DNA from: Glycera tridactyla
Taxonomy: Eukaryota
Reading direction: 5' to 3'
Assembly: GCA_965644265.1 (NCBI GenBank)
Contig: OZ286474.1
Span: forward strand, 59,148,001 to 59,212,000
DNA: 64,000 nt
A model generated the notes under the pieces. That model was not told the origin of the DNA. It saw nothing but the letters and a program-made list of their open reading frames with translations, and ran no database searches. A program made the position numbers and the translations under genes. Positions 22,563-37,600 of the stretch are shown here, piece after piece. Each line of letters starts with the position of its first letter. Position 1 is the first letter of the stretch.

Positions 22563-23540
22563 TTACAGACGGACTGCCTGAGGCCTTACATAAGACCTAA
22601 AGGCTGACGAATTCCATCGACCCTTTTGACGAATTTGCTCATCAGAAAACCCTTCACAAACCCAATCACTGCACCTACCTATTCGAAAAGAGTGACTTGA
22701 CAAATGGTGCCTCCTTCCAAGCGTCAGATCGCCTATCTTCTTCAACCAATCGTTCACAAACCGGGGAGATACCGGCTGACCTTCTCTGAGAAACAGTGGG
22801 CCTGGAATCAAAGATCTTACTTTCAAATACCTCTCCATATTTAATACAGGACATGCGAAATCATGAGGAATACTGTTTAGGATGAATTGTCTAGACCCTT
22901 TGGAAAACTTGTAAGACCTTATGGTAAGCTTGAAAGCCTTGGTAACTCCGTAAGTCGTAGCTCGTTGTAAGTCATCCAACTGGATGCAGTGATCATTAGC
23001 ATTTGATTTAGTATATTCCAAAACCCTCAAGCAAGCGGCGTAGGCCCATGAAAACATAGTACATAGCAATATACCGTCATACGAGTACCCTAAAAGATTG
23101 AAGGTGCATTCCAGCATTTTTAACAGAACCGATTTGGAAACTGGAGAGCGAAAATCGCATGATTTCCTGTTCTTCACAATGCCCCCTATCATTCTAGTAA
23201 CCAAGTAATGTTTGCATGAATCTCCCAAATCTCTAACTTTCAAACCATGAGATAAAGCAGAAAGTTTGGATTTTATGGTCGTGGCTTTTAACCCTGTGGA
23301 ATACAGGTATGCTACGTATAGGCATACCGAGGCATGTGAAAAATCGATGCCTTCCGACTTTACAAAAGCAGAAAAGTCATCCCAAACCTTGGAATAGGAC
23401 TTAGCAGTAGACTTCGCAAAAGACTCGTCTACCAACTCTTTCACCAGATTGCCGAGGTCCTGGGATCGTAGGCTTCCGGAATAGCCACCGGGTGTATCGC
23501 TAACCCCGCTTGTCTGCATTGCTCCTGTGAAAATTGGCAT
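22563..23540 (-). CDS. Tyrosine recombinase (phage-integrase family) of the retrotransposon
   Basis: 325 aa with LRVLE (catalytic R), SHSFRIG (H-x-x-R) and GRWNSSAFRSY (W/Y nucleophile region). N-terminal SAM-like region (STAKSY..W..F). Overlaps the end of the RNase H ORF. Confidence 0.93.
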   Translation of the reverse strand: MPIFTGAMQTSGVSDTPGGYSGSLRSQDLGNLVKELVDESFAKSTAKSYSKVWDDFSAFVKSEGIDFSHASVCLYVAYLYSTGLKATTIKSKLSALSHGLKVRDLGDSCKHYLVTRMIGGIVKNRKSCDFRSPVSKSVLLKMLECTFNLLGYSYDGILLCTMFSWAYAACLRVLEYTKSNANDHCIQLDDLQRATTYGVTKAFKLTIRSYKFSKGSRQFILNSIPHDFACPVLNMERYLKVRSLIPGPLFLREGQPVSPRFVNDWLKKIGDLTLGRRHHLSSHSFRIGRCSDWVCEGFSDEQIRQKGRWNSSAFRSYVRPQAVRL

Positions 23541-25222
23541 CTTGAAATCTTATCTGGGATCAAATTGTCCTCTCCTGGGACATGTATGGCCTCAAATTCG
23601 ATATCATTGAGTAGGGAAAATAACATTACATGCCTCATGAGGCGCATGAGGTCCTCATTTCGTGCAGATCGTTTATTGATAACCTCGACGACCGCCATGT
23701 TATCGCAGAAAAACAGCACTTTTCTATGCCTCAGAGCTAGACGAAAAACAACCAGAGCTGTCAGAATAGGGAAAAATTCAAGGTATGCTATATTCTTCTG
23801 ACACCAATCCCCTTGATACTGTAGGTAATACCACAAATTGCGAAAAACCACACCTGCGCCGTTCTTACATGCGTCAGAATGAATGTGCTCCGGTGCCTGC
23901 CGGCGCAACGTGATATCTTTGAGAAAAGAGTAACCGTTATACTCTGAAAGGAAAGATTGCCACATAATCAGATCCTTTTCTAACTGAAGGGAAAAACAAA
24001 CTAAATGAGAGGTGTCAGTGAGGCCTAAGGTTGCGTCTATGAGGCCTCTGGTGAAGGATTTCCCTGCTGGTATAAGGGAGGTACACCAACTCAATTTACC
24101 TATAAGTGATCTGAGCACTCCGAACAAACATTGTTTAGCATGGAGGATGTCCGACACTTGCTTCAAATATTTCTCAAGCTTGTCAGCCGGCACTCTGGCG
24201 AAACCCTGCCGTACGTCTATCTCAATTCCCAGGAATGTAATTTTCTGTTTCGGATTTTCCGTTTTACGAGGACACAACGGTATTCCAGCTTTCAAGCAAA
24301 AATCCTGGAAAGCTGTTAAATCCTGTAGGCATTTATCGTAGCCATCTGCTACGAAGCAGAAGTCGTCTAGCATGTGTGAGGCGTGTGTAATGCCCAATTT
24401 GTTTTGACAGACCCACTGAAGCGCCGTAGCAAATCTCTCGAAGATCCTGCAGGAGGACCTCCCTCCCATTGCTAAGCATCTGTTTATGTAAAATTCATGT
24501 CCCAGCCTAAGTCCCATGAGGTGGAACTGATCAGGTTTGATGGGAATAATTCTAAAAGCGGATTTAATATCCGTCTTACTAAGATATGCCGTTTTGCCTA
24601 TCGATATCACAAAACCTATGACTGTTTGAACCGAAGCGTACTTCACAGAAGCAGCGGAATCTGGGATATGATAGTTCACAGACAATGAGTTGTACGGCGC
24701 GGAGAGGTTATGTATGAGGCGAAACTTTCCTACTTCGCGCTTCGGGACTATCGAAAGAGGGGATACTTGGATATTATTAAACGGCGGTTCTGCAAAAGGA
24801 CCTACAATCCTTCCTAGTTCTATTTCCTCCGCTATTAGAATCTTGGTTTCCTTAAAATGTTCCTGAACTGAAGGAGAATTCCTGCCCCTATAGGCAGGTG
24901 AAATTCCTTGAAAACCTATGCAAAAACCGTTACTGAAACCATCGATTAGGTAATCAACCTCACCTGCATCATAGCTGTACAACTCATGTCTGAGAAATTG
25001 GTGATTTACTGGTGTCGCCACCTCCTGAAGCCTTTTTCTTATTGCCGAGCTGAGGTGATCCTCCGCTATTTGACCTGCACATATACAAAGGGTGAGAACC
25101 AGCGCAAGTTGGACACGTGTGCTTAAAGGAACAGCTGGGGAACAGACATCTTTTACCCTGAGCATGGTAAAAATTGCAATATCCCTTTTTAATACGTGGT
25201 CCTGACTGCTTCCCTGTATCAT
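23441..25222 (-). CDS. Reverse transcriptase - RNase H (DIRS type)
   Basis: 593 aa with SPLSIVPK, KFRLIHNLS, KTDIKSAFR, CLAMG and MLDDF (RT), and SDAC, IAYLEFFP, FCDNMAVV and HVPGEDNLIPDKISR (RNase H). No methyltransferase domain follows. Confidence 0.95.
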   Translation of the reverse strand: MIQGSSQDHVLKRDIAIFTMLRVKDVCSPAVPLSTRVQLALVLTLCICAGQIAEDHLSSAIRKRLQEVATPVNHQFLRHELYSYDAGEVDYLIDGFSNGFCIGFQGISPAYRGRNSPSVQEHFKETKILIAEEIELGRIVGPFAEPPFNNIQVSPLSIVPKREVGKFRLIHNLSAPYNSLSVNYHIPDSAASVKYASVQTVIGFVISIGKTAYLSKTDIKSAFRIIPIKPDQFHLMGLRLGHEFYINRCLAMGGRSSCRIFERFATALQWVCQNKLGITHASHMLDDFCFVADGYDKCLQDLTAFQDFCLKAGIPLCPRKTENPKQKITFLGIEIDVRQGFARVPADKLEKYLKQVSDILHAKQCLFGVLRSLIGKLSWCTSLIPAGKSFTRGLIDATLGLTDTSHLVCFSLQLEKDLIMWQSFLSEYNGYSFLKDITLRRQAPEHIHSDACKNGAGVVFRNLWYYLQYQGDWCQKNIAYLEFFPILTALVVFRLALRHRKVLFFCDNMAVVEVINKRSARNEDLMRLMRHVMLFSLLNDIEFEAIHVPGEDNLIPDKISRCQFSQEQCRQAGLAIHPVAIPEAYDPRTSAIW

Positions 25223-26942
25223 TCTTGCCTGGGTTGAAACTGCCTGCTTTTAAAGCCTTCTGATGAAGCACGAGGTGAAAAGTTGACCAGGGAAACGGCT
25301 TCACCATTTGGGAACGGAGTACTCTGAAATTCCTGTCATAGAACATGAAATTACCACCGTTATTGTCCAATTCCCTTATCTCATGAACATAAATGAGTAG
25401 GTCGCAACCTTCCCTCGCTCGTTGTTGAGCATTTTTGAAGGGGTGAGCGTTGTAGATAGCCTGAAAGACTAGAAATGCCTGTTCCCACTCTGAAATAGAT
25501 CTAATGGACTTTTTCTTTTTAGAGAGAACGAACTCCCCAGATTTCCCATCTACTTTATAGTGCTTATTCAATAGTTCTGTCGGCTGTAAAAGCTCTTCTA
25601 ACTCAATATATTTGTCCTGCCATATTGATATTCGGGTGTCTAAGTCCACATTGAACCCTATTGGTAGACCCGCCGAAATTATATTTCGAGGGCTTGGATC
25701 ACACAATATATCCGATTCATTTATCGATCTGAAATCAGGAAGACTACGGAAAGGAGACAATGCCGTACATTCATCAGCACTATCTCCTGTATCTCTGATC
25801 CCTTGTAGTCTGGCACCGTCTGCTAAGCGAGCCGTGCCATGATCGTCATGGCTGGCTACACCCCGCCGTAACAAATTCAACCTGTGGTACATGGACATGT
25901 CAATTTCATCATCGCCTGCCGTGACGGTAAGCGGAGGCACACTATGCGGGTCAGAACTGACTGCCGCGAACACATTGTTTGGGTTGAAATTGACACGGCC
26001 ACCCTCACCACGGGTTGAAGACAAACGCCCCGCATGTAAACTATTGTTGTTGTGACCTAAGCCTAACCGTTCGTCTCTGTCATTGAAGTTAAGTCTCGTT
26101 GTCTGTCCGTCCGCCGTCCCTGCCGTCTGTCTTGTTTGATTCGAACTGCCTGTAAAATTAATACTGTGGCACACTGGCCTGCTACGGCCACTGTACTGTC
26201 TTTCATCTTTATCCGAACTACCTAAGACTGTGTTCGACATGAAGAGTAAACGGTCGTTACCTTGCAAAGAATGTCCGCCGTTACTTTGTGAGGCAGCTTC
26301 TGTCGGTCGCCCTCCGATGCCAGTCCCAGTACCGAGACCGTCGATTCTGGCCTGCATGCTCAGCATGATGTTGGACAAGTCCGAAATCTGCCGTGTTGCC
26401 ATTGCTATGGTTGATCTGAAGTCTGACCTGAGTTCGTTTATCGCAGCCAGCCTGGTTGTATCGCCGTGCTCCGACACGTGGTCGTTACTTGCAGAGCCTG
26501 TCGCTCCTAGGGTACTTCCGCTATTCCGCATGCGCAAATCACACGGCACCGGAGAAGGCGACCCACCAATGCCTCCTCCTACGTGCCTATTTCAAATATT
26601 GCAAGCATTGTCTGATGAACGTTGTAACCTATCCAAACGTTGGCCCAGACCACCGTTTCGGGGTTCACAGACTGAACCCTCAACGTTCATAGGGTGACAA
26701 TTGCCAACTGAATTGGGAGGCGGTTGACCACACGGGATTTGACTTCCAAATCCGAAAGCACCCACCTGAGCAGGGCCAGACGCCCTCGAATCCGTGCCGT
26801 TCAGCAAATCCGAAAATGGATCACGACCGCTCCCATTACATGTCAGCGGCCTAAAATCCTCGTCACCCGATGGTCCTCCCAGCGCTGCCGGCTTCCTTTT
26901 CGCGCCGTTACCATTGTCTTCCAAAATGCTCCTTTTCGCCAT
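24984..26942 (-). CDS. Gag-like ORF (~652 codons) with one in-frame TGA at 26592-26594
   Basis: Track ORFs 26592-26942 and 24984-26549 are in the same frame, separated by a single TGA (..ACNI*NRHVGGGIGGSPSPV..). The C-terminus has the DIRS gag motifs EWEQAFLVF and YDRNFR and a Cys/His finger, CNFYH..C..PSCSFKHTCPTCAGSHPLYMC. Confidence 0.85.
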
Positions 26943-27094
26943 CTGTAATCATGATTTTTATCCCAGAACAGTATTTTGTCACAATATGTCACTGAATGTC
27001 CGTCACAACAACCATAGAAAATTATAAATTAGCTGTTAACCTCTAACAACAACAAAGAAAAACAACAACAATAACGTATCCCACTTTCAACTGT

Positions 27095-27847
27095 CTAGAA
27101 CAACGGATTGAGCCCTCGAACCACTCTGCCGAGTCCTGGTACACAGTCCAGCACTGCCTGCCTGAGTTCAAGACGATATTTCCTTGAATAACGTGAGTTT
27201 GGTTTTGGATGAATACCATCCCTACTCCACCTTAGAATGGTTCGAGGAGCAATGTCCAACAATGATCCAAACCCTCTGGTATCATGATAAACCAAACCCG
27301 GCATATGCAGACAGCAGTTTTCCACTTGTGCATTAAATACACGAGCCCTAGGCCTGAAGGCCACAGGCGAAACGAGCCTGTCCAGGCAAGACATGATGTC
27401 AATCATTTTGATGTCATGCTGCGTACGCAGGTTTACAGCTATCTCACATAAGTCTACTGCCAAAGTCCGTGGATCATTGTTGGGTTTCACCAAATCATTG
27501 GACCCTAAGTCCAAAACCACTACATCAGGGACTAATTCGCTAGCGAAGCCTAACTCCTCCAAAATCCCGTGATTGTCTGGATAGTCCTTCAGAAAAGTGC
27601 AAGACCTCAAGTGAACGGCCTGGAATGTATCTGAAAGATTCAGTAGCCTAGCGTACACCTCTGCTCTAGTCATGTTCCCCACCTCTATCTCATGTCCAAA
27701 CCTCCCTTCCTGGATGATAGTATCCAAGTCGTCCTTCTGGTGTTGAACAAAAGAATGTCCCAAAATTAGTCCTACCGGTTTCCGACCTAACCATTGTTCT
27801 ATTGGAACATACGGCGACTTCGCCTGCCAATGCGCCATGCCTATCAT
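27095..27847 (-). CDS. SGNH/GDSL hydrolase (esterase-like), 250 aa from the first ATG
   Basis: Block I GHSF, block III LDLGSND and block V DGIH are present, so the catalytic S, D and H are intact. Confidence 0.85.
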   Translation of the reverse strand: MIGMAHWQAKSPYVPIEQWLGRKPVGLILGHSFVQHQKDDLDTIIQEGRFGHEIEVGNMTRAEVYARLLNLSDTFQAVHLRSCTFLKDYPDNHGILEELGFASELVPDVVVLDLGSNDLVKPNNDPRTLAVDLCEIAVNLRTQHDIKMIDIMSCLDRLVSPVAFRPRARVFNAQVENCCLHMPGLVYHDTRGFGSLLDIAPRTILRWSRDGIHPKPNSRYSRKYRLELRQAVLDCVPGLGRVVRGLNPLF

Positions 27848-29510: not shown

Positions 29511-30790
29511 ACTACCACTGAAATGCATCTCCACTGATTCTAGACTTTCAATATGATAGAGAGTGGCAGTAGGGCAAAGATTGATATCTGGATTAGTGTC
29601 TGATGAATTTGATATAAGCGGTTGAGGAGTTCTTAATAAACCTGCCATTGGCGCAGCTGCTTCACAGTTGTACTATTAAACCTCACATGTGTATGAACAA
29701 TTATGGGATAACGACGCCGGTCACGTGACCACCGGTATGGACACACAAACTGACCAGCACGCTGGACACACAACTGACCACGTGCGTCATTCATGAGTTT
29801 ACACTGGACAATTATTTACTTTTTCACCTCACTGATTGACCTGTAATGAAGCTTGATGAGGAGGGGAATTAGAGAGGGTTGTGAAGCTGATGTATGCATG
29901 CGGCCAACTTTGCTGGGTGTCAGGGTGGAAGCAAGGTAAGACCTCCTACAGAGGCAGATGTTGACCAAGGCGCACGAAAATGAATGAAAAAAAAACACCA
30001 TGGAGAAATCAAACCTCACCCAACTCACATTTTATTCTACATTATCCCCCCCCCCCGTATTGTCTGTCTGACTGCCTGTCCAGTTGTCTGCCTGCCTGCC
30101 TGCCTGTCGCCCCATCCTCAATCCTTCTCGCACTTTCCGTCATTTGTGTTTTGTCTTCCCCATACTCACAATCCTCCTCCCCTTCCCTGGTTCTACCCCC
30201 CCCCCATTGTACCCATCCTCCGTGCTGTAACCTGCATCCTGCATCCTCCATCCTCCATCCTCCGGGGAAAGTGAAAAATACGGTCCCCTGTTTTCGAGCA
30301 CCTGTCGAATGTAAGAAAACGGTCCTATAGTTACTATTTATTGATAAATATGTCAGCAATGTGTTTCTATCAATATAATTCCTATTAGGTGACGACGAAG
30401 TGTAGCATCTTTCCATAAAATTAATATTTTCTGTCTTTCCAACTGATTTAAAAGCCGTATCAAAAGGGGAAAAATCCCCCGGGGATAGCCTGTCATGACA
30501 AGAGTGTAGCATCATTTGTTTCTACTTTGATTTCCAACAAAAACGAACTCAACCTCCAAAACAATCAATATTCAACAATAAAATCAACTAATTTCGCTAA
30601 TCAAATACCTGATTTGACTTGTCTGGTCGTTTTAGTGACTAAAAATCGCTAATAAATGTGTCACAAGCACCTGCTTCGTGGTGGCTGCCATTTTTGTTGT
30701 GAGCGTATTAATACGACAGTTGCCTGTGATGAGGCCAGAAGCGCTCCACCAGTGCAGTCCCACAGCAGGTACTACTTCATATGTTTTAAC

Positions 30791-30877
30791 ATGTCAGCTT
30801 CTTGCTCCATGAGTGAATCCCTCCATCCATGCAGTCCCACTGCCATTGAATCATCAAGGAAATGCAGCAAAAAACAG
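30791..30877 (+). CDS. Merlin cargo gene, shared first coding exon (inferred)
   Basis: ATG 30791, MSASCSMSESLHPCSPTAIESSRKCSKKQ, then the strong donor CAG|gtaagt (phase 0). Confidence 0.55.
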
Positions 30878-30970
30878 GTAAGTGAGCCAGCTGTGTGCTC
30901 TCTAGCTGAGAAGGTTGGAAATGCTTGCCGCCAAGTTCTGAAAGTGAAATCACCAGATCTTCCCCAACAG

Positions 30971-31004
30971 AATACTGGTAAACTGCAGGATTCCACATCT
31001 GAAG
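30971..31004 (+). CDS. Merlin cargo gene, 34-nt cassette exon of isoform B (inferred)
   Basis: Acceptor tcttccccaacag|, donor GAAG|gtgagt; phase 0 in, phase 1 out. Confidence 0.5.
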
Positions 31005-31359
31005 GTGAGTTAATGTTATTTTAAGTGTTATTGGAAGTGATATATTAAAACATAGATTAAAATAGGGTAAAGACTTGAAATAGAAACTTAATAAATAATG
31101 CTCAATTGGAGTTTTTTTGGGGTTGAGGTTTTATTCATCACTCACTGTGTTGTTGGTACTGTTGATAGCATCTCAATGACATGTTTCAGTCACATTTTGT
31201 ATGCCAATTAATGTTATTTAATCAGCTCTAATTAAGTAAATCACTCATGAAATACATTATTTCAACAAGATTGAAGTCCTCCCATGGATGAATAACATTG
31301 GAAAATATGCAGGAAAATCTCAAATTAGACAGTTACCAGTAATTTCTTTTCTTTTCCAG

Positions 31360-31779
31360 ATAAAAAAGGAGGAACCGTCCCACTCCACTAGTCAATTTCA
31401 AGCCTACGTCAACACAGGTATGCCTACCTCTGGTGAAAAGAAACGCGATTTGTGGGCTGACATCCAAAGTATAGTTGGCAAAGGGAAGGACATGCCGAAC
31501 TGCATCAGCATCTTATTCTTCAAAAAATACCTCAAGCACTGGGACAGGGTGATGCTTGCAGCATTCACGTATTGGAATGGTTTAAATCCTGAAATAATGA
31601 TGGAGTGGGTGCGCCTAAATCAACAGTGCCATGACGTTTCTGGAGAGAAAGAGCTGGAGAGTCTCATCGATGCATACAACAAGGGGAAACACTACAACAT
31701 GTATTCATTTTCCATGATAAACCAGCGCTGGGAATATTTTGATGGCCGAGTACGCATTCCCTACCATAACAGAAACTGA
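31360..31779 (+). CDS. Merlin cargo isoform A terminal exon; helical domain resembling primase PriL-CTD/PriX
   Basis: Strong acceptor ttcttttcttttccag|ATA (phase 0). Encodes MPNCISILFFKKYLKHWDRVMLAAFTYWNGLNPEIMMEW..YNMYSFSMINQRWEYFDG. The domain assignment is by eye only. Confidence 0.65.
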   Translation: MKKEEPSHSTSQFQAYVNTGMPTSGEKKRDLWADIQSIVGKGKDMPNCISILFFKKYLKHWDRVMLAAFTYWNGLNPEIMMEWVRLNQQCHDVSGEKELESLIDAYNKGKHYNMYSFSMINQRWEYFDGRVRIPYHNRN

Positions 31780-31808
31780 AGTAAGTTCTTTTTTTCTCTT
31801 TTTTTCAG

Positions 31809-32392
31809 ATCCCGACATGTCTCGGATGCTATCTGAGGTGTTCTCAGTACCGATCGTGAGGACCCACTATAATGCCAGCTTTCCCGGGGCCAAAATCCAT
31901 CATGCCATAACAGAGGACAGGAAAATGTATCGGCCATTAACTCTTCAGACAGGCCTGGGACAGTGCTGCTACTCGAACACATGCCGGCGAGGATTTGCAA
32001 ATATGCCATTGAATTTGTTGAATTGTGAGCCACAGCGCTACGTAGATGGGATGTCGGCTGGAATGAATTATGAAGGCTGTTGCCAGAGCTGTGGGAACCC
32101 CATTCCTAGCCATGCTTCTTATCGATTTCTCAGTGTGGATGTTGTTCAGTGGGTCAGAAATTACCTAAAAACGGACGGTGATTGGCGGCAGGTGCACGGC
32201 GAGGGAGAAGTAACACAAATGTTCTACTTGTATATTGCAAAAAAACAACAAAGGATCAAGAGCAAACCAATCAGGAAGAACTTGATAAATGTATTGATAA
32301 TCCACCCAATGCACAACAGTTACCGGTTCCACCACCAGACATTCACATATCCCCCCACAACTCCAATGTGTATTCTTTCCTTGAACATATAA
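31809..32392 (+). CDS. Merlin cargo isoform B terminal exon; Cys-rich protein of unknown function
   Basis: Acceptor tttttctctttttttcag| in phase 1 restores the long frame DPDMSRMLSEV..CCYSNTC..CCQSC.. A likely -1 continuation follows from the A7 run at 32239-32245. Confidence 0.5.
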
Positions 32393-33671
32393 TGAAAGAG
32401 AGTGAACATGAACTTGATTTAGACATTATTGGCAAAACTAATTTCATTTGCAAATGCACGCCAAGTGAGGATAAGTCATCTGAGCCATCAACAGAACCTG
32501 TATATGATGTAAAAACAGCNNNNNNNNNNNNNNNNNNNNNNNNNNNNNNNNNNNNNNNNNNNNNNNNNNNNNNNNNNNNNNNNNNNNNNNNNNNNNNNNN
32601 NNNNNNNNNNNNNNNNNNNNNNNNNNNNNNNNNNNNNNNNNNNNNNNNNNNNNNNNNNNNNNNNNNNNNNNNNNNNNNNNNNNNNNNNNNNNNNNNNNNN
32701 NNNNNNNNNNNNNNNNNNNNNNNNNNNNNNNNNNNNNNNNNNNNNNNNNNNNNNNNNNNNNNNNNNNNNNNNNNNNNNNNNNNNNTAAGAGTGAGTGAGT
32801 GAGTGGGTGAGTGGGTGGGTGAGTGAGTGGGTGATTGAGTATGAGTNNNNNNNNNNNNNNNNNNNNNNNNNNNNNNNNNNNNNNNNNNNNNNNNNNNNNN
32901 NNNNNNNNNNNNNNNNNNNNNNNNNNNNNNNNNNNNNNNNNNNNNNNNNNNNNNNNNNNNNNNNNNNNNNNNNNNNNNNNNNNNNNNNNNNNNNNNNNNN
33001 NNNNNNNNNNNNNNNNNNNNNNNNNNNNNNNNNNNNNNNNNNNNNNNNNNNNNNNNNNNNNNNNNNNNNNNNNNNNNNNNNNNNNNNNNNNNNNNNNNNN
33101 NNNNNNNNNNNNNNNNNNNNNNNNNNNNNNNNNNNNNNNNNNNNNNNNNNNNNNNNNNNNNNNNNNNNNNNNNNNNNNNNGAGCGAGTGAGCGAGGGTGC
33201 AATGATAATATCATTCTCATTCAGTTTTGCAACGTCCATCATGACCGGGTTTACTTCACTTGAATTAATGGGGAACAAAAATATTGGGTGGGTAGATGCC
33301 ATTGGATGGAGTCATATATTTATAGAGGAGAATTATTCAGTTCGGCAAAGTCATAAATGGCCGGGTTTACTTAACAATTTATCTTCACCAGCATATCTTC
33401 CCATGTGCGATTGTGGTTGGGTGGGTGGTGAATGGGGGAGGGATGGCGATCTAGGGCTTCGTTAATGCAATGTGCTTAGGCATCGGGTTTACTTAGTGTT
33501 TTTTCTGTACATTTCAACCAATGAAATCAACTGGAATAAAATCAATGACATCACTTACCTAATCAATGGAAACATCTCTTTTTGCAGTTTGTTGTTCTTC
33601 TGTAATCTTTACTTTCAGCTTCCTTCTTTGGGTTACGGTATAAAAATAAATGTATCTATTGCACGAGCATC

Positions 33672-34622
33672 CTAATGGAAACGGGCCTGCGGCATAGCCT
33701 GACGCATTGCCACGTCCACCTGCTCATTGCCGCAAGGGTAGTAATGGGCCATTATGTTGACCAGCTTGGCGAAAATGTCCTCGCGTTTCGCGTTTCACCT
33801 GAACGTGACTTCATCCAAGTATGCTGGGAGCCTCTCTGTTCTCACACCATGCATCGACTTGAAAATGCACTTCAAGTTTCCCCAACAACCCTCGATGGAC
33901 TGCGTGTGCGTACCATCTTCAGGGTCAACGTAGTTGTCCGAGTGGTTGACAGTTTGGTGAACGTACTGGTTTTCGTGTTGGCCCAAGCGAGCATAGGCTG
34001 CCCACTGGTCAGAGTATATTGTCGTCCTTGGAACAATGTGCCGAACGATGTGGCTGACGAGCTCCTCCCTTGTGCGGTTAGGAACTATGGCAAGAACCAC
34101 CTTCTTCGTAGTTCGGGAGAGCATGCCAAACACCCACGGAGAATCAGCCATCGCTCTACCCCTGTTGTATTTACGCTTCCCACGCCAAAGGGACTCGTCG
34201 ATTTCAACGATTTCGCCAGGTCCACCGAGTTGGACTGGGTGATCCAGCATCCACCGAGACATACAGTCACGAAACAGATTGTACCAGTCCATGATGGACT
34301 TCTCACACATGTGACTCCCAATCATTTTCGCAGCATCCACAATTTGAACTTGTAGAGAGAATAAATAAAGTACCATGAGAAGTGTCTGTAAATCAAGTTT
34401 TTGCTTCTCGAAGAAGCTGCCAGTACGTATGGATTTTCTGCCTCTGCACTGTGGGCACTTCCAGGTAAACCCATCTGCTTGCCTTTGCTCATACTTCTGC
34501 TGGCGCATCCACACATTACAAACATCACATACCTGTCCTTCTCTTAATAGGCCATTCTCTCGCATGAAAACTATAGAGTTTTCCTTCGATGCAGTAATAA
34601 TCCCGATTTGGAAGATATCCAT
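33672..34622 (-). pseudogene. Merlin DDE transposase (316 codons) with one premature TGA at 33795-33797
   Basis: N-terminal C-x2-C..C-x2-C finger, then SIRTGSFFE, VEIDES, KYNRGR, WVFG, IYSDQWAAY, VNHSDNYVDP..HTQSIEGCW and YLDE. The frame continues past the TGA (FR*NAKREDIFAKLVNIMAHYYP..) to TAG at 33672. Confidence 0.92.
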
Positions 34623-37600
34623 TGCGAAAGTGCCACGCCCACTTATACCTCGATCCTCGACCGCGTGTGAGTATTTTCGAATTTTCGCGCCCTTAGCAAC
34701 CTCGGCGGTCACGTGACCGGCCGCTATAGCATCGTTTCATAGCATCACCGCAAAAATCATCTCAGAGACGTTTCTAACTCATTATTTTGGTATAAATCGT
34801 TTTAAAACGTTTATATAACGTTAATTGCTCGCTAGGGTGCAACTAGTAACGTGTATTTATATCGTAAATCGAAAACGAAATGCGAACTATATCGTACCGA
34901 CTTCTCGCGCAAGATCACGTTTTTAGCGAGGTAGTGATTCGGTTAGCTATTTCAACATTGTTTTTGCAACAAACGCTTCAAAATAGTCTTTATACCCCGA
35001 ACTTTTCTCCATTTTGTCTAATTAGATCAGAAAAATCATCGAGGAATGTTTTTATAACGTTTCTACACAGATATTCAATGATTTCTCAGGGAACTCTTTG
35101 AGATCCGCGCAAGCGCACGTATTTAGAACCGGAAGTGAACAGGTAAGCAATGGCGGCCACAACAACGAGAGATGCGAGTTGCGATCCCGTGACAGTTTAC
35201 ATGAAATGAGGTAAGATGACAGGTTTTCAACATCTTTCGTGCAGTTTTCCATGTTAGTTTCAATATTCACTCTCTCATGATGTTCTTATATGATCGTGCC
35301 AACGCTGATTTCGTTTGAAATTCGTAGATACAATTGTTGCTACACTTTGACATCTCTCACTTTATAGACTACCAAACCGGGGGATTTTTCCCCCAGATAC
35401 GGCTTCTAAATCAGTATTCCTATCGTTAATATTGAAAGATGCTACACTTTGCCGTGCCCTATAGAAACAGAATTAATTATTACAAATAAATAACACCAAG
35501 AAATGATTTTTTGGATTGTTTTTATAGGTGCTGTCAACCTCCGAAAAAAGGGGACCGTATTTTTCACTTTCCCCCATCCTCCACCTTCCATCATGCATCA
35601 TGCATCAGGCATCTATCNNNNNNNNNNNNNNNNNNNNNNNNNNNNNNNNNNNNNNNNNNNNNNNNNNNNNNNNNNNNNNNNNNNNNNNNNNNNNNNNNNN
35701 NNNNNNNNNNNNNNNNNNNNNNNNNNNNNNNNNNNNNNNNNNNNNNNNNNNNNNNNNNNNNNNNNNNNNNNNNNNNNNNNNNNNNNNNNNNNNNNNNNNN
35801 NNNNNNNNNNNNNNNNNNNNNNNNNNNNNNNNNNNNNNNNNNNNNNNNNNNNNNNNNNNNNNNNNNNNNGAAGGTAGCAAAACGCCAAATACAACAACAT
35901 CTGAAACAAGGGCAATAGAACAGAAGGAGAAGCAGCAGCAGCGGACACACATCAGTAGCCATCCCGTGACCCATACTGGGGTCATCGAGCTATTTCAAGG
36001 TGCTACTTAGGACTGGTGACTGACCAGCAGTTGTCTACGCACCCCATCATTATCAGCACCCTGGTATCGACCACCTGGCATTCAACTTGTGTGCACATCA
36101 CTTCCGTGTTTCAAAGTCATGCAATGACTCTGATGAGTGCCTCATATCCTCACTGGGTACATCATTATCTGGGACCTCTAACATGATTTTTGTGTATTGA
36201 ACATTGAGTACATCCAAACTGGATTCAGAATTATTCTATTGTACCAATGGCTAGGCAATGAGTAGGGTTCCTATTGAGATAGGTGAAGAAGTTCGATATG
36301 GTCGACCATCCAATACCGGGCACATTCTCATGTTTATTTCAGTCCATGCTTCTTGAACAAGGGGCGCCTCGGTTGAGAGGAGATTGAGTGGAACTCTGCT
36401 TTGCACATTTTGAATGGGTACTTTGGATAGAGGAGTGGCATTGGTGGGAATTGTGGAGTGCTTAGCTTATGCAGTCACTTTTGAGATGTTAGTGGTATAA
36501 TCTTCATAGGGTTTTAAAAGGCTCAAGCATCGTCTTTCACGGAATATCAAGGTGAAGTCTGATAAATCTGTCAAAGATATCGCACAGTAAATCATAGCAT
36601 TAATACTTTCACCACATATCAGGCTACCACTCACATGATATCTTGATTATCAGGATATCATGTATGTATGAACTTTGTGTTGCAATGTCACAGATTGGTT
36701 TTCGAACCTTTTACAGCCTATTCAATGATTAGTAAGGGTTACTGTACTCATACAAGGTCACATATCTGGGCCTCATGTGACATTACGCCTAGTTAAGTTG
36801 CATCCTTATGGAGCCACCTATAAGGGTCCTTTCTCTGAACAGGCTCCTATTGTGTTTCATGTATGTTTGAAACAGGTTCAATCATGGTAGGATGAAAATG
36901 TTATCTTCAAAATCACTCATCGACTAAATTAGCAAATATTGAAAATCGGAATATTTGAGTTGACTTGATCCTGACTTGGGCCACTTGATGCCTTTATTTA
37001 GTGCCAGATCACGACCGTGGCATTTCGCTGGCGTGGCCTGACTCTGTCTGCAGGGATAATATCATGCTGAACGCCCGCCTCCTCCCCTTGCTCATCCACT
37101 TCATCCTCCTGCTCTCCCTACTCTCTGTCTCTGTCTCTCTGTCTCTGTCTCTCTCTTTCCGTCTCTCCATCTCCGTCTCTGTCTCCGCCTCCGCCCCCGC
37201 GTCTGCCTGCCTGCCTGTCTTTCTGTCTTTCTATCTTCTTTCTCCATCCATCCATCCATTCATCCATCCATTCATCCATCAATCTATTTATCCTAACCGT
37301 GATCAACCCTAAAAGAATTTCCAAAGGCCACACAAAAGTTGGAACGCCCATTTATCGAATCACATTGCGACCATCCTATTCTACAGGGAAAAACAAACTC
37401 ATTAAAGAATCAAAACCCGGAGTTAAAATTAGGGGTATCATTGTTGAACCAGTCTATGAGAGCAGGATGCTTTGTCGTGCCCCACGTAGCCCGAGGACAA
37501 GATAATGGGGGGGGGGGGGCAGAAAGTGAAAGAAGCTGATAGTTCATACACACCTCCTACTACATAACGATGACTGGGTGGAAACGGATATATGTTACAA

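Follow-up and report, generated by a model that had tools for sequence, protein, structure and literature searches.

Two conserved accessory genes in a Merlin transposon clade of Glycera tridactyla, one with a predicted fold resembling primase large-subunit domains

What does a small protein with a likeness to the primase large subunit do inside an animal transposon? The question arose from a 64-kb stretch of Glycera tridactyla DNA (hereafter the window; contig OZ286474.1, positions 59,148,001–59,212,000), in which an initial annotation, made from the sequence alone, described positions 31360–31779 as a cargo protein (A). We found that this region lies within an element of 5,311 bp (30264–35574) bounded by TIRs and a TSD, and these boundaries, together with a PF12762 transposase, confirm that A is cargo. 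The parts of the element are as follows.

30256..30263: left TSD copy, 8-bp CATCCTCC, the same letters standing on both sides of the element
30264..30296, + strand: left TIR, 33 bp, starting GGGG, 97 % complementary to the right TIR
30386..30525: left subterminal patches, inverted repeats of patches at 35324–35461
31339..31419, + strand: region preceding A, with a pyrimidine tract and acceptor-like AG (31358–31359), a stretch at 31360–31417 and a donor-like GT (31418–31419)
31420..31779, + strand: gene A, intact, likely 119 aa, predicted PriL-CTD/PriX-like helical fold
31781..31808, + strand: A–B spacer, 28 nt, from a donor-like GTAAGT just past the A stop to an acceptor-like AG immediately ahead of B
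31817..32519, + strand: gene B, Cys/His-rich, with a frameshift near 32350 in the window copy
33672..34622, − strand: transposase, Merlin/IS1595-type DDE, 316 codons, N-terminal CxxC..CxxC
35542..35574, − strand: right TIR, partner of the left TIR
35575..35582: right TSD copy, 8-bp CATCCTCC

Reading from 34622 on the reverse strand, the transposase ORF matched PF12762 (DDE_Tnp_IS1595; E 2.6e-26, 92.9 bits against a cut-off of 27), and in the window copy it contains an in-frame stop at codon 276 (33795–33797). Those passages of PMC8101967 that define Merlin list an IS1595-type transposase, 5′-GG TIRs and TSDs of 8 or 9 bp; by its transposase, GG TIRs and 8-bp TSD, the element carrying A is a member of this superfamily. 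It shares these marks, as well as internal tandem repeats, with the IS1016/IS1595-related Merlin elements, and GG termini were seen across the families of bounded relatives. It differs from plain Merlin elements in that its clade adds two conserved genes on the strand opposite the transposase, and also in size, as elements bearing A and B span 3.5–8 kb whereas plain Merlin elements bounded in the same genome measure ∼2 kb. The transposase, by the criteria for Merlin the only conserved gene, is here accompanied by A and B, which are both conserved and selected; this makes the element a Merlin variant that is still a member. To our knowledge, Merlin elements have been described as transposase-only. 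The portions of PMC8101967 that concern additional reading frames mention just one overlapping ORF, judged to be due to chance. A full-text literature search, covering listings and the starts of abstracts, returned no report of accessory genes in Merlin elements; such elements could be listed in Repbase or in the supplements of PMC8101967. We also observed a GGTCACGTGACC palindrome both just upstream of the transposase (34698–34721) and at 29710–29734, 550 bp beyond the left end of the element.

In order to establish how A is distributed, we searched the 2.0-Gb assembly and obtained 101 genomic matches, most at 30–45 % identity, of which 40 picked for diversity were examined. This neighbourhood comparison of A homologues, which the initial annotation had proposed, placed B directly behind A on the same strand at 39 of the 40 loci and a convergent transposase after the pair at 33 (six had none within 9.9 kb and one had an upstream fragment only). 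Perfect 8-bp TSDs flanked 17 of the 19 copies of these Merlin relatives whose ends were set, and four more genome copies matched the cargo arm at 97–99 %. As a control, 20 loci with less closely related Merlin transposases were examined: 19 were without A or B within 9.9 kb, and the remaining one (44 % identity) had B. Furthermore, in a midpoint-rooted tree of 42 transposase matches of at least 200 aa, with long branches flagged, the 23 A/B-bearing rows formed one side of a branch with support of 100/98 and the 19 others fell outside. For A, dN/dS was 0.07–0.13 in seven of 13 pairs and 0.23–0.26 in two close pairs, whilst dS was saturated in four. It is virtually certain that A and B travel together in TIR/TSD-bounded Merlin elements of a single transposase clade, and that they do so under purifying selection.

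These selection data contradict, and make extremely improbable, the reading of A as a host PRIM2 fragment carried passively after Pack-type capture and of no use to the element. The host does own an ordinary PRIM2 on C1 and, in addition, a divergent, intron-containing PRIM2-like gene (G000:C40:63663413-63666283; L095, L098–L100) from which such a fragment might have come, but dN/dS stays at 0.07–0.13 across families with saturated silent sites, and comparison with 120 PRIM2 proteins gave no significant sequence match (best E 0.13). Among the best matches of the host PRIM2 exon, those with a name were mostly molluscan. Relatives of A are also too widespread for this reading, the A profile having retrieved 782 library proteins beyond its own genome at E ≤ 0.001. 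Together with the genomic matches and the dN/dS values, this number shows the open frame of A to be no product of chance. Among 30 of these relatives that were looked up, one came from Mytilus coruscus and some clusters were multi-copy on megabase contigs; a quick tree of 50 A rows was mostly unresolved and says little on transfer. Within the assembly, three degraded A matches with identical scores, ∼9–10 kb apart (G000:C29:6607109-6626288), suggest tandem duplication.

Distances among A, B and the transposase were correlated (Spearman 0.65–0.89). In three pairs (L036/L045, L039/L042 and L048/L069), however, near-identical transposases are accompanied by A and B genes that have diverged strongly, and the A+B arm of one locus (L038) groups apart from its own transposase, which suggests, from sequence comparison, that the arm may be exchanged as a unit between transposase lineages. 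The layout of the two genes would suit a common transcript. Of 17 loci, 12 had a donor-like motif within 25 nt before the A ATG and 12 had one within 28 nt past the A stop, compared with 11 of 563 background windows; an acceptor-like AG followed the post-A motif at 25–60 nt, just before the B ATG. One subfamily has no such spacer layout, its B start lying only 1–2 nt beyond the A stop. We infer that A and B are likely made from one transcript via alternative splicing or stop–start coupling. Additionally, one of 183 proteins scanned, P0109, carries A and B in a single chain (B profile E 5.9e-30). Two further arrangements were seen: in P0002 the A domain is present twice in tandem, and at L052:2785-4452 A and B share a reading frame in one genomic copy, which looks like a chance frameshift because the sibling L069 keeps them separate.

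In four sibling copies B is 278 aa long, its tail being unreadable in the window copy. It has ten invariant residues (C50, C51, C56, C89, C92, H163, N167, H173, C212 and C214) and a long acidic, low-complexity tail, and is a probable zinc protein; a structure search gave no clear fold match and no match to a primase fold, a result that would be compatible with a catalytic partner of A supplied by the host. We consider it rather unlikely that A and B form an anti-silencing or regulatory pair, in which A would sit on the subterminal repeats or on RNA and B would recruit or block chromatin factors, such that the transposase stays expressed. Plant Mutator elements, with their accessory anti-silencing proteins, offer a precedent, and the patches of subterminal inverted repeats near either end, the swapping of A+B arms between transposase lineages and the tail of B are all consistent with such a role; the fold neighbours of A, however, bind phosphates and single-stranded nucleic acid irrespective of sequence, and A is conserved although TIR sequences vary between families.

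The open frame of A lies on the forward strand between a splice-acceptor-like site at 31359 and the stop at 31777–31779. With the product starting at the ATG at 31420, and the starts of relatives falling at the equivalent Met, a protein of 119 aa is likely. The initial annotation had aligned by eye a peptide that corresponds to residues 25–63 with an FPPC-type pattern of the PriL C-terminal domain (PriL-CTD). Part of this alignment stands: R43, F49 and G54-L55 are in ungapped register with the PriL invariant Arg (50/50), Phe and Gly-Leu. The Cys of ‘MPNC’, in contrast, occurs in fewer than 10 of 97 family rows, where the consensus is W-P-x-x-I-R, and is not a family feature. Conserved positions comprise W/P26, H40, R43 (90 of 97 rows), F49 (96), N53-G54 (82 for G54), L55 (86) and W63, and the median net charge of the family is +5. 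As had been noted, the window protein has only two Cys (positions 28 and 70), and the doubt cast earlier on a 4Fe-4S cluster was justified, no alignment column exceeding 28 Cys in 97 rows. The four Fe-S cysteines of the primase domain are absent from the family, the first-ligand position being Cys in fewer than 10 of the 97.

The structure model of A had a pLDDT of 87.8. A comparison of the predicted structure with PriL-CTD and PriX, proposed with the initial annotation, gave a mixed outcome: in a fold search of 48,161 chains, 14 of the top 50 matches were PriL-CTD, photolyase/cryptochrome, the pRN1 helix bundle or PriX, but unrelated helical domains tied in Z. In a smaller comparison this group filled the top 10 of 146; its members are known to be related, as parts of PMC2852410 and PMC5862659 describe. 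Atlas neighbours of A carry PF04104 (17 % of members), PriX (52 %) and PriCT_1 (63 %), and the PriL-CTD profile scored at least 5 bits in 12 of 97 A members, compared with none of 97 reversed sequences, two of 485 shuffled sequences and none of 72 other element proteins. Homology scores to the primase group were all below significance: at the PF04104 cut-off the window protein had no match and the best family member reached E 0.015 (1/97), whilst PriX (PF18689) listed no A member in sets of 28 and 97 and had no match in the genome. It is unlikely, though these scores and the ties in Z would be expected under it, that A is a real and selected gene whose primase likeness is a chance match between small helical bundles, with a function unrelated to primase chemistry; the match lists repeatedly contain four members, under separate names, of a single known fold group, the functional Arg is in register with PriL, and the Atlas features lead to the same three Pfam families. 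The fold of A as modelled is probably related to PriL-CTD, PriX and PriCT, and the likeness first proposed is partly supported, by predicted fold and residue register if not by homology scores.

R43 aligns with the initiation arginine of PriL/PRIM2 (human R306, yeast R355), the aligned PriL Arg showing the yeast R355 spacing to P334, F361, K363, I365 and L367. According to the relevant sections of PMC5700102, yeast R355 superposes on PriX R72, which is needed for ATP binding and initiation. At the position of yeast K363, A has Tyr or Phe, the conserved Lys being lost, and of the PriX D70-R72-R74 site one Arg is kept, with an aromatic residue at −2 and an aliphatic one at +2 (placed via the PriL sequence register only). 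Relative to PRIM2/p58C (PF04104), A shares the initiation Arg but is without the Fe-S cysteines, the C-terminal subdomain, the N-terminal domain and the conserved Lys, falls under the Pfam cut-off, and resides in an element without the catalytic subunit. PriX works in a complex with PriS and PriL, whereas A is a separate protein, encoded next to a DDE transposase, and has no PF18689 match. In plasmid and viral primases with PriCT/helix-bundle domains, PriCT is fused to the primase domain; A is not fused.

Among viral predicted structures, the best matches of A were two uncharacterized CRESS DNA virus ORFs of similar length, A0A345MQ97 and A0A345MY62 (E 3.8e-4 and 1.4e-3, TM 0.64–0.65, 16–22 % identity), the better one superposing with an rmsd of 2.3 over 88 columns (TM 0.65, E 3.8e-4). 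Four of the top 11 matches were named rows, all from CRESS viruses, and an archaeal-virus primase large subunit ranked 12th (E 0.37); in predicted structure, CRESS virus proteins are nearer to A than is any cellular primase. No B-like match was found among viral structure models, and sequence searches recovered no viral A locus.

These matches bear on the quite unlikely reading that A replaces the C-terminal domain of host PRIM2, holding the initiating NTP and recruiting host primase/Pol alpha for a partly replicative transposition. The initiation Arg is retained, an initiation subunit that stands alone and has no Fe-S cluster is already known in PriX, the nearest folds belong to ssDNA viruses that must prime a second strand, and archaeal primase is involved in break repair, as parts of PMC12019639 report. 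Against it, the 119 aa of A include no evident PriS-binding part, conserved counterparts of PriX D70 and R74 are missing by sequence register, and TIRs with 8-bp TSDs suit ordinary cut-and-paste. An extension of this idea, which we regard as distinctly improbable, is that the clade took a primase-initiation module from CRESS viruses and uses it to bring the primase/Pol alpha of the host to element DNA, so that a DDE transposon became a self-primed copying element; if so, the same module would explain second-strand priming in some ssDNA viruses.

We instead tentatively favour a role for A in gripping DNA ends, as a selected accessory gene specifying an Fe-S-free, stand-alone domain of PriL-CTD/PriX type that would act via Arg43 during transposition. 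Arg43, located where the central helix begins, would bind phosphate as do human R306, yeast R355 and PriX R72, so that A could grip the phosphate-bearing or single-stranded DNA ends left by the transposase. A would act together with B, and the two might aid excision, integration or donor repair. Since the element revealed no catalytic domain of a primase, A presumably could not prime alone. By holding transposon or donor ends, A may perhaps raise transposition success or copy-restoring repair, a benefit that we offer with similar caution.

One Merlin clade carries a pair of accessory genes that are old, under selection and related to proteins in many further data sets. In the sections of PMC9587614 dealing with Kolobok, a transposase subclade is likewise defined by an accessory gene, and the accessories named are KolX, a His-Me nuclease, a DEDDh exonuclease and RecQ, several of them DNA-processing. 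Kolobok differs in transposase superfamily and TSD, and neither A nor B matched its accessory families in Pfam or fold searches. The same search of listings and abstract starts yielded nothing on PriX-like proteins encoded by eukaryotic transposons. The predicted fold of A has so far been tied to primases and photolyases, and is shared by unnamed ssDNA-virus proteins. Should A bind DNA ends or the initiating nucleotide, it would link DDE transposition with priming or repair, extend the PriL-CTD/PriX group by a new, stand-alone animal protein, and offer a way into a family of CRESS-virus proteins that lacks annotation. With near-identical intact sibling copies at hand, the system could be tested in cultured cells.

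Elsewhere in the window, a tyrosine-recombinase retrotransposon-like element, which we take to be of DIRS/Ngaro type, occupies 22563–27847 on the reverse strand. It has four long open frames, namely a recombinase-like frame (weak Pfam match), a reverse transcriptase (PF00078, E 2.9e-11), a gag-like frame and a GDSL esterase (PF13472, E 3.8e-7).
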